IMG/VR virus record: IMGVR_UViG_2526164651_000005
Source of the DNA: a virus
Taxonomy: Duplodnaviria; Heunggongvirae; Uroviricota; Caudoviricetes
Direction: 5' to 3' (one strand)
Length of the DNA stretch: 16,069 nt
Below the pieces are notes generated by a model. It saw nothing but the letters and a program-made list of their open reading frames with translations. It was not told the DNA's origin and searched no databases. Every line of letters starts with the position of its first letter. The stretch's first letter is position 1. Of this stretch, positions 7,030 to 13,508 are shown one piece after another. The position numbers and the translations under genes were made by a program.

Positions 7030-7167
7030 TTTCCCGCCTGTTAATGTGCTCGCCAATATTCATTACCAGGCGGGAAAACGATCGGTGCGATTACTGATTT
7101 CCTTATGAAAAACGGTTGAGTGTTTGCCGCGTCCTGGAGTTCCTTACTTAACCCCAGGACTTTTTTT
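7030..7167 (+). promoter_or_regulatory. Structured leader of the capsid operon: perfect 11-bp long-range stem (7030..7040 with 7067..7077) and a terminator-like hairpin (GTCCTGG 7131..7137 with CCAGGAC 7154..7160) followed by T7 abutting the capsid ATG
   Basis: Inverted repeats read from the sequence. The T7 run occupies the position where a Shine-Dalgarno would be expected. A second CCAGGAC copy at 7012..7018 could pair alternatively with 7131..7137. Confidence 0.4.
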
Positions 7168-8325
7168 ATGCAGAGAATAATCGAATTACGCCAGCAGAAA
7201 ACCGCCATTAAAAATCAGATGCGCGACATGCTGGAGAACGCTGAAAAAGAAAACCGCAGTCTTAACGATGCTGAGGGCGCAAAATTTGACGAATTACGCG
7301 CTAAAGCTGAATCCCTCGCTAAAGACATTTCCCGCCTTGAAGCCATTGCAGACGAAGAGCGCAGCAAGCCAGGTAAAAGCAGCCAGACCACTGACCCCGC
7401 AGAACTACGCAACTACATTCTGACCGGTGAAACCCGCGCATTAAGTACAGGCGTTCCCGCTGATGGTGGTTATACCGTTATCCCTGAACTGAACACCGAA
7501 ATCATGCGAATGCTGGCGGATGAATCCACCATGCGCCGCATCTGTACCGTGAAGAAAATCAGCAGCAACGAGTTTAAGCAGCTTGTTTCCGCTGGCGGTG
7601 CGACCGTTAACCACGGTGAAGAGGGTAAGGCACGCGAACAGACCAGCACCCCGCAGATTAACGAGGTGAGCATTAAGCTGTATCCGGTCTATGCGTACCC
7701 GCGCACCACACAGGAAATCGTGGATTTTTCCGATGTGGACATCCTTTCATGGCTGACGGGTGAGATTGGCGACACCTTCACGGAAACCGAAGAAAGCGAT
7801 CTGGTTGTGGGCGACGGTGACAAAAAAGCAAAAGGTTTTTTATCCGTACCCCGTGCAGAGAAGAACGACAAAGAGCGTGATTTTGGTACGTTGCAGGTAA
7901 TTAAACCTTCCGAATCTCTGGCGTGGACATCTGCGGACCCGCTGATCGACCTGAAATTTGCATTACGTAAAAAATACCGCAAAAACACGGTCTGGGTGGT
8001 TAACTCCACGACGGCGGCAAAACTTCAGAAGGTGAAGAACGCGAACGGTGATTATATCTGGCGCGACCGTTTACAGGCGGGTGATCCTGATACGTTGCTG
8101 GGCCTTCCGGTCGAATATCTGGAGTTTATGCCTGATAACGTTATTGCCCTGGGTGACTTCAAACGCGGTTACTACATTGTTGATCACGAAACAGGTGTTC
8201 GCACCAGACCGGACAACCTGACAGAACCAGGATTCATCAAAATTTTCACGCAAAAATATTTAGGCGGTGGCGTGGTGGATTCGAACGCGATCAAGATTCT
8301 GGAACTGCCGGAAGACGACGATTAA
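7168..8325 (+). CDS. Major capsid protein, HK97 fold family, 385 aa
   Basis: Coiled-coil-like N-terminal delta/scaffold region (MQRIIELRQQKTAIKNQMRDMLENAEKE...) followed by a capsid body of typical HK97-like length. Gene context (protease and portal downstream). The track start at 7120 (GTG) was rejected in favour of the ATG at 7168. Confidence 0.9.
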   Translation: MQRIIELRQQKTAIKNQMRDMLENAEKENRSLNDAEGAKFDELRAKAESLAKDISRLEAIADEERSKPGKSSQTTDPAELRNYILTGETRALSTGVPADGGYTVIPELNTEIMRMLADESTMRRICTVKKISSNEFKQLVSAGGATVNHGEEGKAREQTSTPQINEVSIKLYPVYAYPRTTQEIVDFSDVDILSWLTGEIGDTFTETEESDLVVGDGDKKAKGFLSVPRAEKNDKERDFGTLQVIKPSESLAWTSADPLIDLKFALRKKYRKNTVWVVNSTTAAKLQKVKNANGDYIWRDRLQAGDPDTLLGLPVEYLEFMPDNVIALGDFKRGYYIVDHETGVRTRPDNLTEPGFIKIFTQKYLGGGVVDSNAIKILELPEDDD

Positions 8326-8335
8326 CAGCATACAG

Positions 8336-8364
8336 AAGGGGCTAAAAAGCCCCTTTAGTGTTTT
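8336..8364 (+). terminator. Intrinsic terminator-like hairpin after the capsid gene (AAGGGGCT-AAAA-AGCCCCTT, then TAGTGTTTT)
   Basis: Perfect 8-bp GC-rich stem with a 4-nt loop immediately after the capsid stop; the downstream T-tract is interrupted, suggesting a partial terminator. Confidence 0.5.
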
Positions 8365-8937
8365 ATGGGTGAAAAAATTATGAAGAGTATGGAAATCCGG
8401 TCATCGGAAATCACCACCAGCGGAGCCGGCACGCTGACGGGCTACGTTGTTCGCTGGGATAAGCTTTCAGAACTGTTATGGGGTGAGTTTTACGAAAAAT
8501 TCCAGCGGGGGGCGTTTACTGAATGGCTTGCGGCGGGTAATGACGTTCGCGGCCTGTATGAGCATGACCACAGCATGTTACTGGGGCGCACCCGTTCCGG
8601 CACGCTGAAACTGGAAGAGGACGAAACAGGGTTACGCTTTGAACTGACCCCACCGGATACCAGTACAGGGCGCGACGTTATCGAACTGGTTAAGCGTGGG
8701 GACATCTCGGGGATGAGCTTTGGCTTTCGCTCCCGTAAGGATGTATGGGATACCACAACAGATCCATGCGTGCGCACCGTGCTGGTGGCGGAACTGTACG
8801 AAATTACCGTTACATCGGTACCGGCTTACCCCGATTCCGGCGTGGAGCTGGCCCGCCGTTCCCTGTATGAGCAGCACCCCGAAAAAATGCCGCGTGCGGA
8901 TAATCGCCGCTGGTGGGCGGATTTAGCGGGGGTGTGA
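8365..8937 (+). CDS. Prohead maturation protease, HK97 family (about 185-190 aa)
   Basis: Size, position between capsid and portal genes, and HK97 prohead-protease-like sequence (…HDHSMLLGRTRSGTLKLEEDETGL…). Start is ambiguous between ATG 8365 and ATG 8380; the latter has GGGTGA upstream. Confidence 0.85.
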   Translation: MGEKIMKSMEIRSSEITTSGAGTLTGYVVRWDKLSELLWGEFYEKFQRGAFTEWLAAGNDVRGLYEHDHSMLLGRTRSGTLKLEEDETGLRFELTPPDTSTGRDVIELVKRGDISGMSFGFRSRKDVWDTTTDPCVRTVLVAELYEITVTSVPAYPDSGVELARRSLYEQHPEKMPRADNRRWWADLAGV

Positions 8938-8938
8938 T

Positions 8939-10150
8939 ATGTGGCCTTTCAGACGAAAAAAAGAGCAGCGCAGCATGACGCTTGATGAATTTATGGCGCT
9001 GGCCGGCACATCGAACACGGGGGCGGGTGAGTACGTATCATCTGGGACAGCGGAATCACTCCCCGCCGTCATGAACGCCGTCACGGTCATCTCTGAGGCG
9101 GTGGCTACCATGCCGTGTTACCTGTACCTGGTACGCAATGAGAAGGGGAAGGAGGCCCGCGAATGGCTTGATTCTCATCCGGTCGATCACATCCTCAACG
9201 AGCGCCCGAACGCGTGGCAGACACCCTACCAGTTTAAGCGAATGATGATCCGCCACTGCCTGTTAAGTGGTAATGCTTATGCGGTTATTCAGTGGGGGCG
9301 TGATGGTTTTCCGGCGGCTTTACATCCTTACCCGCCGCAGTCGGTGAACGTGGAGCAGACAGGTGATCATAACTGGCGCTACTGCATCACTGACGCCTAC
9401 ACCGGAAACACCCGCAACTATTTACCGTGGGAGGTTCTCCACCTTCGTTACTCCACGGATGACGGTTTTATGGGGCGCTCACCTGTAACCATCTGCCGCG
9501 AATCGCTGGGGCTTGGGCTGGCCCAACAACGCCACGGCGCGAGCGTGATGCGTGATGGCATGATGGCGGCAGGGGTTATCACGTCAGGCGAATGGCTGGA
9601 CGGCGTGAAGGGCAAACAGGCATTAGCCGCACTGGAACGCTACAAAGGGGCCAGAAACGCCGGAAAAACGCCCATCCTTGAAGGGGGGATGAGCTATCAG
9701 CAGCTGGGCATGAGTAATCAGGATGCCGAATGGCTGGCCTCCCGTCGCTTCACCATTGAAGACATCGCCCGAATGTTCAATGTCTCGCCGATTTTTTTGC
9801 AGGAATACAGCAACAGCACCTACAGCAACTTCAGCGAGGCAAGCCGCGCATTTCTCACCATGACGATGCGCCCGTGGCTGGCGAACTTTGAGCAGCAGAT
9901 AAAAAACGCCTTGCTGGTGGCCTCGCCTGTACCTGGTATCCGGTATCAGGTGGAGTTTGACAGCGCGGACCTGTTACGGGCCACACCTGGCGAACGCTTT
10001 GCCACCTATGAGCGCGGCATAAAATCCGGCGTTATGTGTCCGAACGAAGCCCGCGAACGTGAAGGGCTGTCACCGCGTGATGGTGGTGATGAGTTCAGCC
10101 AGGCATGGAAACAGGAAGTAAAAATCAGCGAGGGAGAAAAACCGGAATGA
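8939..10150 (+). CDS. Portal protein, HK97 family, 403 aa
   Basis: Length and sequence character of HK97-type portals; tightly coupled to the protease gene upstream and the head-closure gene downstream (overlapping ATGA). Confidence 0.9.
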   Translation: MWPFRRKKEQRSMTLDEFMALAGTSNTGAGEYVSSGTAESLPAVMNAVTVISEAVATMPCYLYLVRNEKGKEAREWLDSHPVDHILNERPNAWQTPYQFKRMMIRHCLLSGNAYAVIQWGRDGFPAALHPYPPQSVNVEQTGDHNWRYCITDAYTGNTRNYLPWEVLHLRYSTDDGFMGRSPVTICRESLGLGLAQQRHGASVMRDGMMAAGVITSGEWLDGVKGKQALAALERYKGARNAGKTPILEGGMSYQQLGMSNQDAEWLASRRFTIEDIARMFNVSPIFLQEYSNSTYSNFSEASRAFLTMTMRPWLANFEQQIKNALLVASPVPGIRYQVEFDSADLLRATPGERFATYERGIKSGVMCPNEAREREGLSPRDGGDEFSQAWKQEVKISEGEKPE

Positions 10151-10485
10151 ACATAGGGCGACTGCGTGACAGGATAACGATTCAGACCCTGAAACAGACC
10201 AGGGATATAACCGGCGAAATACTCGAAACGTGGGAGGACGGTCACACACTCTGGGCAAGCGTGAACATGGTCAGCAGCAAGGAGGCCATTTCATCGGGCG
10301 CAGAGCTGGCGATTGGTACCGTAAGGATCTGGATACGGTACCGGAAGGACATCAACGCCACCAGCCGGATAAAGGTCAGTACGGGGCCGCTGGCGGGGCG
10401 TGTACTGAATATCATCGGGCAGCCGCTGCCGGATGCCGCCAGGACACGCCTTGAAATTCTTTGTCGTGAGGGCGCGGAAAAATGA
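10147..10485 (+). CDS. Head-closure / head-tail joining protein (SPP1 gp16-like), 112 aa
   Basis: N-terminal MNIGRLRDRITIQ... and ...RIWIRYR... match the conserved pattern of phage head-tail joining proteins. ATG at 10147 overlaps the portal stop; AGGGAG lies upstream. Confidence 0.8.
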   Translation: MNIGRLRDRITIQTLKQTRDITGEILETWEDGHTLWASVNMVSSKEAISSGAELAIGTVRIWIRYRKDINATSRIKVSTGPLAGRVLNIIGQPLPDAARTRLEILCREGAEK

Positions 10486-10778
10486 CAGAAGAACTTATCA
10501 CCCTGGAAGAAGTGAAACTCCATTGCCGCATCGATGGCGACGATGAAGACCAGTTAATCAGCGGATACATTGCCGCATCGCTTGAGGCGTGCCAGATACA
10601 CATAGGCAGGCGCTTTGATGACGGGCTGGCGTTCACGCCAGCCATAAAGATTGGCTGCATGATGTTTATCGCTCACCTGTATGAAAATCGCCAGATTGTC
10701 GCGGATAACGCAAAAACACGCGTACCCATGACGATAGGCGCACTCTGGACGGCTTACCGTGATGTGGGGGTGTACTGA
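10482..10778 (+). CDS. gp6-like head-tail connector (adaptor) protein, 98 aa
   Basis: N-terminal ...ITLEEVKLHCRIDGDDEDQLISGYIAAS... resembles the gp6-like connector family. Start overlaps the upstream stop (ATGA). Confidence 0.75.
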   Translation: MTEELITLEEVKLHCRIDGDDEDQLISGYIAASLEACQIHIGRRFDDGLAFTPAIKIGCMMFIAHLYENRQIVADNAKTRVPMTIGALWTAYRDVGVY

Positions 10779-11218
10779 TGCCGTGGCAACCATTAAGACG
10801 ATGCACAGAACCAGGCTGTAACAGGCGCGTTAAATCCGGCAAGTGTGAGGAGCACAGGCGGGCGGCATGGCGTGCAGAGGATGCCAGACGAGGACACCGC
10901 CGCGCGCGTGGATATTCCAGACAGTGGGACAAATACCGCGCCATGTATCTGAGTAAAAACCCGTTATGCGTGCGATGCCTTGAGAAGGGGATATATACGC
11001 CCGCCGTGGTGGTGGATCACATTATCCCGATTAATGGCGGTGATGATGTTCTCTTCTGGCCCGAATGGAACCATCAACCATTGTGCCAGGCGTGTCATAA
11101 CCAGAAAACGAAATGGCTTGATCCGGCAACAAAAAGCAAGCGTGCCGCAGGTGGATTTCGTGAAGAGGAAGAACGGGCTGCTAACCGCAATAACTGGATG
11201 TATGACGCTGATGAATGA
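10778..11218 (+). CDS. HNH endonuclease (terminase-associated), 146 aa
   Basis: Cys-rich zinc-binding pairs (CTEPGC...C..H; C..C; C..C) and the HNH core (VDHIIPI...N.QPLC..CHN.K). Position directly upstream of TerS and TerL, as in HK97-like cos packaging modules. Confidence 0.85.
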   Translation: MPWQPLRRCTEPGCNRRVKSGKCEEHRRAAWRAEDARRGHRRARGYSRQWDKYRAMYLSKNPLCVRCLEKGIYTPAVVVDHIIPINGGDDVLFWPEWNHQPLCQACHNQKTKWLDPATKSKRAAGGFREEEERAANRNNWMYDADE

Positions 11219-11384
11219 GCGGGAACAAAACCGCCTTATCCGTGGACTTATAAGGCAGCGTGACGCATGGAAGACACAGGAAACAGGGCATAAAGATAAA
11301 GCGTCAGGACGCGCAGAACGCATCACAGCGAAGCGATTAACCGACCGTGACCGCGAGGTTATGGAATGTTTCCGCAATCGCTGA
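11211..11384 (+). CDS. Hypothetical small basic protein, 57 aa (MNEREQNRLIRGLIRQRDAWKTQETGHKDKASGRAERITAKRLTDRDREVMECFRNR)
   Basis: ATG overlaps the HNH stop (ATGAATGA), suggesting translational coupling. It is the tail of a longer alternative-frame ORF in the track, so low confidence. Confidence 0.3.
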   Translation: MNEREQNRLIRGLIRQRDAWKTQETGHKDKASGRAERITAKRLTDRDREVMECFRNR

Positions 11385-11506
11385 TGAGGCTGTATGATGG
11401 GGTGGGGGGCGTTTTCAGGACAAACCCGACCCCGCCGGGCACCGAACGCCTCCCCAAATTTTTATGCACGGGAATTTTTTGAAAAATAATCTGACGAAAA
11501 ATAAGC

Positions 11507-11863
11507 ATGGCAAGACCACCGAAAGCCCCCGCCTACCTGGATGATATCGCCGTGAAGCAGTGGCGGGAAAAATCGCGGCAGCTTGCGGAACGGGGAGACC
11601 TGACCCCCGCCGACTGGAGCAATCTGGAACTGTATTGCGTCAACTACTCCATTTACCGGAAAGCCGTTGCAGACCTTGCGGCGCGCGGGTTCAGCATTGT
11701 TAACAGTCAGGGCGGCGAGAGCAGAAACCCCGCATTAAGCGCAAAATCCGACGCTGAAAGAGTGATGATAAAAATGGCCTCCTTGCTCGGTTTTGACCCG
11801 ATAAGCCGCCGTAAAAATCCACCGGAAACAGAAGAAGAGGACGAGCTTGACTGCCTGGAATAA
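11507..11863 (+). CDS. terS: Terminase small subunit, P27 family, 118 aa
   Basis: Conserved P27-family pattern (W...L......D...L..YC..Y........G.........G....NPA.......M......GF.P.SR) and position immediately upstream of TerL. Confidence 0.75.
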   Translation: MARPPKAPAYLDDIAVKQWREKSRQLAERGDLTPADWSNLELYCVNYSIYRKAVADLAARGFSIVNSQGGESRNPALSAKSDAERVMIKMASLLGFDPISRRKNPPETEEEDELDCLE

Positions 11864-13508
11864 GTACGCAGAAGACGTAAAAACGGGCAAAATTCCGGCC
11901 TGTAAACGGTTAAAACAGGCTGTTAAACGGTACTTTTCGGACCTTAAAAGCCCCCTTTACACGTTCGATCGTGAGGTTGTGGAGCGGTTTATTGCCTTTT
12001 CCAGGGTGTGCCCGCACGTAAAAGGACCGATGCGTGGCAGACCCATTGAGCTGGAGCCGTGGCAGCAGTTCGCCTTTGCGTGCATCCTCGGCTTTAAGGT
12101 TAAGGCCACCGGACGGCGCAAATACACGAGCGCCTTTATCGAAGTGCCGCGCAAAAATGCGAAATCCACGACCGCCGCGATTCTGGCTAACTGGTTTCTG
12201 ATTATGGAGAACGGTCAGCAGGATATCTACACCGCAGCGGTGAGCCGTGACCAGGCGCGGATCGTGTTTGATGATGCGCGTCAGATGTGCCTTTTATCCC
12301 GACCGTTACGCAGGCGGGTGAATATTCAGGCGCATAAGGTGATACACCCGAAAAGCAACAGCCTGTTAAAGCCGCTGGCAGCAAAAGCGGCAACCATCGA
12401 GGGGACAAACCCCAGTCTTTCCATCGTGGACGAATACCACCTACACCCCGATAACGGCGTTTATTCCGCGCTTGAGCTGGGGATGGGCGCACGTCCCGAA
12501 GGGCTGTTATTTGCCATTACCACATCGGGCAGTAACGTCGTTTCAGCCTGTAAACAGCACTATGATTATTGCTGCCAGATCCTGGACGGCGAAGAGGTCA
12601 ACGATTCAATTTTTGTACTGATTTACGAACTGGACGACGAAAACGAGGTTGATGATCCGGCGATGTGGATAAAGGCGAACCCTAATATTGATGTTTCCGT
12701 GGATCGTGAAAAACTGGCCTCAACCATCCAGAAAGCGCGGGGTATTCCGTCGCAGTGGGTGGAGATGATGACAAAGCGATTTAATATCTGGTGTCAGGGG
12801 ACTACCCCGTGGATGGGTAATGGTGCATGGGCTGAGTGTGCCGGAACGTTCACGGAGGAAGATTTACACGGTCAGGAGTGTTACGCGGGGCTGGACTTAT
12901 CATCAACCAGCGATATTTCCAGCGTATGCTATGCCTTTCCGGTCGGTAAAACCATTATGCTGATTTCCCGTCATTATCTGCCGGAGTTCCAGCTACAGAA
13001 CCCCGCCAATAAAAACCGCGCTGTCTATCGCCAGTGGGCTAAAGCGGGCTGGATACGCACAACGCCAGGTGACTGCATTGATTACGACCGGATCAGAGAT
13101 GACATCATGCAGGATGCGGAGAAATTTAATATCAGGCTGGTGGGCTTTGATACGTGGAACGCCACGCATCTCAGGACGCAATTACAGGGGGCTGGTTTTG
13201 AGGTGGAGCCGTTCCCGCAAACCTACCTCAGATTCAGTCCGGCGGCGAAATCGTTCGAAGTTTTTGTTAACCGCAGGGTGATTGTGCATCGTGGCGATCC
13301 GGTGTTGTCCTGGTCGATGAGTAACGTCGTGATGCAGAGTGACGCGAACGCCAATATCAAGCCGAACAAGAAAAAATCACCGAACAAGATAGACCCGAGC
13401 GTAGCGGTGCTGATGGCGTTTGGTACATTCCAGGCAGAGCATGAGGCTTTTGCTTTTGATATAAGCGACAGCCACCGCCAGAAACTGGAAGAATTTAGCG
13501 GGGTGTAA
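11847..13508 (+). CDS. terL: Terminase large subunit (ATPase/nuclease), 553 aa
   Basis: Length and sequence features of large terminases. Probable TTG start at 11847 with GAGGA 5 nt upstream, overlapping the end of terS. Start codon uncertain. Confidence 0.9.
   Translation: MTAWNKYAEDVKTGKIPACKRLKQAVKRYFSDLKSPLYTFDREVVERFIAFSRVCPHVKGPMRGRPIELEPWQQFAFACILGFKVKATGRRKYTSAFIEVPRKNAKSTTAAILANWFLIMENGQQDIYTAAVSRDQARIVFDDARQMCLLSRPLRRRVNIQAHKVIHPKSNSLLKPLAAKAATIEGTNPSLSIVDEYHLHPDNGVYSALELGMGARPEGLLFAITTSGSNVVSACKQHYDYCCQILDGEEVNDSIFVLIYELDDENEVDDPAMWIKANPNIDVSVDREKLASTIQKARGIPSQWVEMMTKRFNIWCQGTTPWMGNGAWAECAGTFTEEDLHGQECYAGLDLSSTSDISSVCYAFPVGKTIMLISRHYLPEFQLQNPANKNRAVYRQWAKAGWIRTTPGDCIDYDRIRDDIMQDAEKFNIRLVGFDTWNATHLRTQLQGAGFEVEPFPQTYLRFSPAAKSFEVFVNRRVIVHRGDPVLSWSMSNVVMQSDANANIKPNKKKSPNKIDPSVAVLMAFGTFQAEHEAFAFDISDSHRQKLEEFSGV

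Follow-up and report, generated by a model that had tools for sequence, protein, structure and literature searches.

A likely HNH-dependent cos site in the gap upstream of terS of an Escherichia coli capsid-forming PICI

Capsid-forming PICIs (cf-PICIs) are phage satellites that use capsids of their own to spread across species and genera, and what is packaged is determined in cis by the cos site. cf-PICIs package DNA with their own HNH-TerS-TerL, and the Proteobacterial elements share the gene order capsid, protease, portal, connectors and hnh-terS-terL (bioRxiv 10.1101/2022.09.08.507074). The helpers are HK97-type phages, which reportedly package their DNA separately from the satellite (bioRxiv 10.1101/2022.09.08.507074). 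The position of cos is given in none of the cf-PICI papers accessible to us. Among phages with related packaging genes, SfI has a cohesive end that was determined on virion DNA: run-off sequencing revealed a 10-nt gap, TGCCCGCCCC (PMC3636060). HK97 has a 10-nt 3′ overhang, and the minimal site of its TerS, at +15..+29, is composed of a GC triplet and an A/T tract; one of two models for this phage has TerL and gp74 each cutting a different strand (PMC11331095). Moreover, the HNH proteins N.phiGamma and N.phiE2 have been shown to nick DNA strand-specifically at CG/GT, i.e. AC^CG on the other strand (here and below a slash marks a cut or boundary); they tolerate the variants ACCC, ACTG and ATCG, and their biological function was called unknown (Xu and Gupta, PMC3592412).

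The stretch of DNA analysed here as a whole (the window, 16,069 nt) is an E. coli cf-PICI. Pfam matches over 7120–13508 follow the published gene order, and the element is chromosomal in E. coli: the segment 11150–11600 was found in the chromosomes of 489 of 5426 complete E. coli genomes, O157:H7 strains included, with identities of up to 99.3%. The Pfam matches comprise the major capsid protein (7120–8325), prohead protease (8365–8937), portal (8939–10150), a head completion protein (10105–10485) and a connector (10482–10778), followed on the plus strand by an HNH endonuclease gene (10778–11218; Pfam HNH, E=1.8e-8), whose context is that of a packaging nickase, by terS of the P27/Terminase_4 family (11507–11863, ATG at 11507; PF05119, E=1.3e-23) and by terL of the HK97 type (11847–13508; TerL_ATPase and TerL_nuclease). 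A 55-aa ORF on the same strand (11217–11384, with its stop codon at 11382–11384) lies between the HNH gene and the gap before terS; it matches phrog_3173 (E=1.4e-34), has no Pfam match and is labelled as a hypothetical protein in RefSeq. The 3′ end of this ORF is poorly kept between genera. In E. coli/Klebsiella-type islands a phrog_3173 ORF is always located between the HNH gene and cos, and the islands of Xenorhabdus, Serratia and Pasteurella carry a different sequence upstream of the G-tract described below. A stretch of low G+C at 1201–1650 (0.34–0.35, compared with about 0.52 elsewhere in the window) follows the first long ORF, and may be a regulatory or attachment region of the island.

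Comparisons with proteins of known structure and with phage homologues place these genes in the HNH-dependent class of packaging systems. The sole match of the window TerL among PDB sequences was HK97 TerL (6Z6D, E=4.1e-42). The window HNH matches the GVE2 HNH protein 5H0M over its full length (E=2.2e-15), is homologous to both N.phiGamma (35% identity) and N.phiE2, and is 37% identical to the SfI HNH. TerS is 36% identical to SfV/SfI TerS, and searches of PDB sequences with the window TerS, alone or as a 13-sequence profile, returned no match. The HK97 TerS falls outside Terminase_4, and hhalign of the window TerS against it gave a probability of 0.1, i.e. no detectable similarity. No TerS structure has been solved for the P27 family, and because similarity between the two TerS proteins is not detectable, the HK97 TerS-DNA structure can be used as a positional analogy only. 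The initial annotation had argued from the proximity of HNH and TerS genes, and the Pfam and PDB sequence matches bear this out: an HNH protein, a P27-family TerS and a HK97-type TerL are all present.

The gap preceding terS, as read directly from the sequence, spans 122 bp (11385–11506) and does contain the three G/C tracts and the following AT-rich run reported in the initial annotation, namely GGGGTGGGGGGCG at 11399–11411, CGACCCCGCCGGGC at 11427–11440, CGCCTCCCC at 11447–11455 and the AT-rich run at 11456–11506. We consider it highly likely that the cos site of the E. coli cf-PICI lies in this gap. This location, which had already been proposed from the tracts, agrees with a common register with SfI and ST64B, with virion-derived assemblies of relatives, with the published packaging of cf-PICIs and with a composite motif that is unique in the window. 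The composite pattern, G-tract-N34-ACCR-C-rich, occurs once in the window versus 0.01 occurrences expected, and the AT core sequence AAATTTTTNNGCANGGNNNTTTTTT once versus 0.00 expected. The exact GGGGTGGGGG likewise occurs once versus 0.02 expected; with one mismatch permitted, 0.87 occurrences of it are expected per window, which is hence unremarkable.

Conservation is stronger evidence than these motif counts, and alignment of related loci resolves the gap into blocks that differ in it. The upstream G-tract (11399–11411), with its conserved core GGGGTGGGGG at 11399–11408, is followed by a partly conserved block, TTTTCAGGACAAA (11412–11424), in which GAC and A are nearly invariant in the alignments, and by a spacer (11425–11437) that varies in sequence and is fixed at 13 nt in length. 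Then come GGCACCG (11438–11444), conserved as GG-N-ACC-R with an invariant ACC at 11441–11443 and holding the predicted HNH nick AC^CG, and the predicted 9–10-nt 3′ cohesive end CGAACGCCT(C) (11443–11452), which stands in gapless register with SfI and ST64B. The AT-rich conserved core AAATTTTTATGCACGGGAATTTTTTGAAAAATAA (11456–11489) is the predicted TerS site, and a poorly conserved leader with indels between genera (11490–11506, plus strand) leads to the terS start. Thus the outer two of the three tracts singled out in the initial annotation are conserved, and the middle one (11427–11440) is mostly variable spacer, of which only the GG at 11438–11439 is kept.

The loci for this alignment were gathered by TerS protein homology alone, with one genome per species, and the resulting set contains 33 loci (31 of them intact) with TerS proteins 68–83% identical. 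At least 20 genera are represented, including Klebsiella, Aeromonas, Citrobacter, Enterobacter, Kosakonia, Serratia, Rahnella, Erwinia, Pantoea, Pectobacterium and Xenorhabdus, among others. The region from the G-tract to the T-run aligns nearly gap-free across these loci, and in most of them the interval separating the G-tract from the AT core is free of indels. Measured from the first base of the G-tract, AAATTTT lies at a distance of 56 nt in 22 of the 25 loci measured. In 32 TerS-selected sequences, information content reached 1.81 bits/column in the G-tract, 1.71 in GG-N-ACC, 1.54 in the C-tract and 1.59 in the AT core, which can be set beside 1.68 for positions 1 and 2 of the terS codons and 1.01 for position 3. 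Lower values were obtained in the 17 nt that directly precede the ATG (0.86), at the 3′ end of the small ORF (0.56) and in the spacer 11425–11437 (0.46). The invariant ACC is continued as ACCG in 16 and as ACCA in 11 of 32 loci, and the remaining five, from Xenorhabdus, have it with a 1-nt shift; among motif-selected sequences, ACC is followed by G or A in 89 of 94. Conserved blocks held at fixed spacing around a variable spacer are the signature of a protein-DNA assembly site. The design is also retained in Pasteurella cf-PICIs (TerS 66% identical) and in the Acinetobacter phage AbIPP1 (38%). In IMG/VR, terS almost always follows the AT core; none of 120 IMG/VR loci with an AT core clearly ended at cos, where the ends of a locus are not reliable contig ends.

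The initial annotation had named flanking terminase-binding repeats as typical of cohesive-end sites. No conserved repeats of this kind were found here: neither the GAAAAATAA duplication nor the inverted repeats are kept in relatives. The inverted repeats I1 and I2 and a possible CCCG/CGGG hairpin in the spacer were tried as candidate elements and rejected, since other genera retain them only inconsistently. The window also has a direct repeat, CACCGAACGCCTCC / CACCGAAAGCCCCC (86%), with one copy at 11440–11453, in the predicted nick and overhang region, and the other at 11517–11530, covering terS codons 4–8. Synonymous differences are seen in the terS copy when other genera are compared, and the repeat may thus be a chance product of Pro/Ala codons.

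Close known relatives of the site are found in SfI, SfV and ST64B, which have an HNH gene just upstream, a TerS in the same Pfam family as that of the window and the same gene order of HNH, cos, terS and terL. These are complete phages, whereas the window is a presumably tail-less satellite. The SfI record terminates exactly on the cohesive end, reading ...GGAC TGCCCGCCCC / GTCGTTTTTTTATACCCGCG. When anchored at the T-run, the window, KpCIDSM30104 and Pmp8 align with ST64B and SfI in one single gapless register in which G-tract, C-tract and T-run all coincide, and the core of the window is identical to the SfI/ST64B cos at 24 of 36 positions, a score matched by 0 of 100000 shuffles. Shared features are the AC/ left edge, a C-rich 10-nt end, the T-run and a GC triplet. 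So aligned, the cohesive end of SfI falls opposite positions 11443–11452 of the window (CGAACGCCTC). The boundary reads AC/TG in SfI and AC/CG in the window, and the AT core is TTTTTATACCCGCGAAAAATGAAATTTAACC in SfI/SfV/ST64B compared with AAATTTTTATGCACGGGAATTTTTTGAAAAATAA in the window. The cohesive ends themselves were mapped for SfI (PMC3636060), and because termini are mapped in such relatives rather than in this element, the positions given for the window are transferred by homology. On this basis the cohesive end of the satellite probably falls within 3 nt of 11443–11452, a placement in which we have moderate confidence.

More distant phages show the same layout. The HK97 cos region reads GGGCAGGGGGGGGG-N32-AC/CGCCGCCAAA/GTTTG..CTAACCCGATTTTTTT; HK97 resembles the window in its homologous TerL, its upstream HNH gene, the AC/CG boundary, an overhang rich in C and, some two helical turns farther downstream, a GC triplet with an A/T tract, and differs from it in having a TerS of another family and a TerS site of unrelated sequence. 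In the Bacillus phages Gamma and Cherry, CGCCGCCCC stands at both ends of the record as a 9-nt terminal repeat with AC before it, and the WBeta record ends with ...GTCCGTAC and starts with CGCCGCCCCCTCAAC; the cohesive end of these three phages is taken from the record ends. They share with the window a P27-family TerS and an HNH that is 35% identical, and their G-tract, GGGTAGGGGCGGG, begins exactly 44 nt before AC/CGCCGCCCC/CTCAA, to which the cf-PICIs of other genera have the counterpart CACCCGCCCC/CTCAA. On the other hand, their host is Gram-positive, the overhang has 9 nt compared with the predicted 10, and the downstream A/T-tract region is another one. A literature search with the string CGCCGCCCC returned unrelated papers only. 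In the window, KpCI, SfI and Gamma alike, the G-tract begins 44 nt ahead of the left edge of the cohesive end; the corresponding distance is 46 nt in HK97 and 43 nt in AbIPP1. As for GVE2, its record is linearised within the HNH gene and thus carries no information on ends. In the Clostridium phage PhiS63, which has a very AT-rich genome, GGTGGGG is located 39 nt upstream of an 11-nt terminal repeat, CGCAGTGTCTA, so that the G-tract is retained even there; the boundary in this phage is GGT/CG, not AC/CG.

Assemblies of virion DNA from relatives break in the same gap. LR881103 (vB_KppS-Ant) was assembled de novo with SPAdes from a Nextera XT library of a phage preparation on K. pneumoniae DSM 30104, and its methods mention no contig re-orientation (PMC8006926). 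In that publication the authors regard it as a new genus of filamentous ssDNA phage (PMC8006926); the record actually encodes capsid, portal, HNH, TerS and TerL, and is identical to the island of K. pneumoniae ATCC 13883. This cf-PICI was subsequently named KpCIDSM30104, and its packaged DNA is reported to concatemerise via cohesive ends (bioRxiv 10.1101/2025.02.11.637232). The record also labels a 2.3-kb gene after terL as a tape measure protein, an odd label in a satellite without tails. The first base of the linear contig lies 22 nt ahead of terS and its last base 37 nt beyond the small ORF, and because the contig spans the integrase region, it crosses attP. Aligned to the chromosome of its host strain (ATCC 13883), it matches at 100% identity for 300 nt on either side of the break and is without exactly 69 chromosomal nt, GAACACGAGGGCGCCAGGCAC-CACCCGCCCC-CTCAAATTTTTTCGCACGGTGATTTTTTTGAAAATAAA, i.e. 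21 nt, the predicted 10-nt overhang and 38 nt. Tagmentation libraries lose some tens of bases at each end of a linear DNA, and such depletion of reads at linear ends would account for the 69-nt loss. A second virion-derived record, PQ569648.1 (Klebsiella phage P12620-1), also breaks in this gap. The 106.5-kb ‘complete genome’ of PQ569648.1 is a chimera, in which the ∼16 kb at 90640–106503 are a cf-PICI; this part runs from terS codon 2, where it is joined to unrelated phage sequence, through the end of the small ORF.

These records bear on whether the gap could instead be a pac-type recognition site for headful packaging, with no defined cohesive ends. Many satellites with a TerS of their own, the pac SaPIs, do use headful packaging (bioRxiv 10.1101/2022.09.08.507074). 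The TerL of the window is nevertheless of the HK97 cos type and has an HNH partner as in HNH-dependent cos systems, the LR881103 assembly shows one single defined break and is unpermuted, and concatemers joined via cohesive ends have been reported for KpCIDSM30104 (bioRxiv 10.1101/2025.02.11.637232). Hence we regard headful packaging as the least probable of all the readings considered, to the point of being nearly negligible.

The conserved non-coding stretch directly upstream of terS might alternatively serve mainly to control terS-terL transcription or translation, as a late promoter, operator or leader, with cos located elsewhere, and its AT-rich sequence with TTGAAA-like hexamers would fit such a role. 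A scan of the plus strand over 11000–11900, however, returned no sigma-70-like promoter and no terminator, and conservation is lowest over the 17 nt that lead up to the ATG. Moreover, the conserved blocks align with mapped phage termini, two virion-derived assemblies break in the gap and the composite motif is found nowhere else in the window. A control region with cos elsewhere is therefore very unlikely, and a dual role of the gap, as cos and in terS-terL control, is possible.

Slightly more remote is the view that the G-tract and C-tract form a hairpin which, with the T-run, makes up an intrinsic terminator, an attenuator or a structured RNA after the small ORF. The inverted repeat GGGGGGCGTT/AACGCCTCCC is 90% complementary and is followed by AAATTTTT, and RNAalifold pairs the G-run with the C-run in 27 of 27 sequences. 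But the loop would be 31 nt long, the terminator scan was empty, and the DNA fold of 11390–11500 was no better than that of shuffled sequences (z = 0.41). The RNAalifold covariation term was −0.19, where the pairs of the G-run and C-run are nearly invariant and thus uninformative on covariation. No Rfam family matched at E up to 1, and in phages these tracts are found on both sides of mapped DNA ends.

Taken with these comparisons, the gap is very probably a HK97/P27-type, HNH-dependent cohesive-end site, a new member among the known ones, at a location that a specialist would expect. It lies between the HNH gene and terS-terL, next to a TerL of HK97 type and an HNH protein homologous to terminase-associated nickases, and it is homologous in sequence and architecture to the experimentally mapped cos of SfI. 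The left edge of the predicted cohesive end, AC/CG, is the nick site of the homologous terminase-associated HNH nickases; AC/CG is also the left edge in Gamma/WBeta, the former being the phage of N.phiGamma itself, and in HK97, and SfI has AC/TG. We have not found this coincidence stated in the literature to which we had access, which was limited. The strand cut by these nickases corresponds to the bottom strand here, the one that has to be opened at the left edge for a 3′ overhang to form; this agrees with the HK97 model that divides the two strands between TerL and gp74 (PMC11331095). ACCG has only 4 bp and is common by occurrence, and HK97 gp74 has been described as non-specific. Since the motif is so short and frequent and gp74 is non-specific, the assignment of the bottom-strand nick to HNH is an inference from position and homology, and we give slightly less than even odds that the HNH protein makes it.

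From this architecture we infer the steps of a packaging cycle. By analogy with HK97, the satellite TerS would bind the AT core (11456–11489), just downstream of the cut, on concatemeric DNA, and TerL together with the HNH nickase would make two staggered nicks. HNH would nick the bottom strand at AC^CG, between 11442 and 11443, and TerL would nick the top strand 9–10 nt downstream, at about 11452/11453, to leave a C-rich 3′ overhang of CGAACGCCT(C). Packaging would run rightwards with terS entering first, and the G-tract (11399–11408), exactly 44 bp upstream of the nick, would fall at the last-packaged end. There it would probably come into play once the motor arrives at the next cos, where it could resemble cosQ, make the motor pause or let TerL/HNH dock. 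The G-tract is accordingly labelled here as a predicted distal cos subsite in a cosQ-like position.

This layout recalls lambda, whose cos is tripartite (cosQ-cosN-cosB) with the binding region of the small terminase subunit on the first-packaged side, by the small terminase gene. The window has the same series of a distal upstream element at the last-packaged end, a nicking site and a small-subunit region on the first-packaged side. In lambda, 12-nt 5′ overhangs are cut by TerL alone, cosB carries R-repeats and an IHF site, and there is no HNH. No lambda-type R elements are kept in the gap region, whose sole direct repeat is the two-copy match reaching into terS.

The AT core, on the first-packaged side, is predicted to be the recognition site of TerS by analogy with HK97, where the minimal TerS site at +15..+29 matches it in position. 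Across SfI, Gamma and HK97 the AT core diverges with TerS lineage, and the G-tract and the AC/C-rich part do not. Because the G-tract and the AC/C-rich part are common to HK97 despite its unrelated TerS while the A/T region differs, the A/T region is the part that TerS would read. Being lineage-specific, it would also carry the specificity that tells satellite from helper, and since the AT core is unlike that of HK97-type helpers, it would keep the packaging of the two apart. Classical Gram-negative PICIs such as EcCICFT073 with Rpp resemble the window in that a satellite-specific cos diverts packaging to the island; in those islands the helper terminase is re-targeted by Rpp, whereas the window has its own TerS, TerL and HNH.

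Going beyond the single element, we tentatively suggest that HNH-dependent cos sites, from Bacillus Gamma to HK97, the Sf phages and the cf-PICIs of at least 20 gammaproteobacterial genera, could share one deeply conserved tripartite design: a G-tract 43–46 bp upstream of the cut, an AC^CR recognition and nick site of HNH as the left edge of the 3′ end, and a lineage-specific A/T-tract TerS site. If this design is true, HNH cuts the bottom strand and TerL the top strand, which would explain both the need for HNH and the assignment of strands, and the G-tract would represent a new kind of cos subsite, recognised by the conserved TerL/HNH pair and not by TerS. The coincidence of the edge with AC^CG in Gamma/WBeta, HK97 and SfI offers a testable answer to the question posed for HK97, i.e. 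how the 3′ overhang originates and what HNH does. What merits testing is the model at base level, together with the coincidence of the HNH nick site. A prediction of cos at this resolution opens tests of packaging and specificity, such as satellite versus helper and transfer across genera, and would help in building minimal transducible cassettes and in detecting cf-PICI termini in virome data.

One locus may provide a natural variant of the site. In Shigella flexneri SFBU1023 (CP182556.1, 1161908–1164640), the region equivalent to window 11431–11533 reads CAAACCCGACCCCGCC/TAC, owing to a deletion between two CCCCGCC repeats (window 11431–11437 and 11527–11533). The deletion takes out the C-tract and AT core together with the nick site, and terS loses its first seven codons; this island is thus a natural cos/terS knockout and should be unable to package itself.
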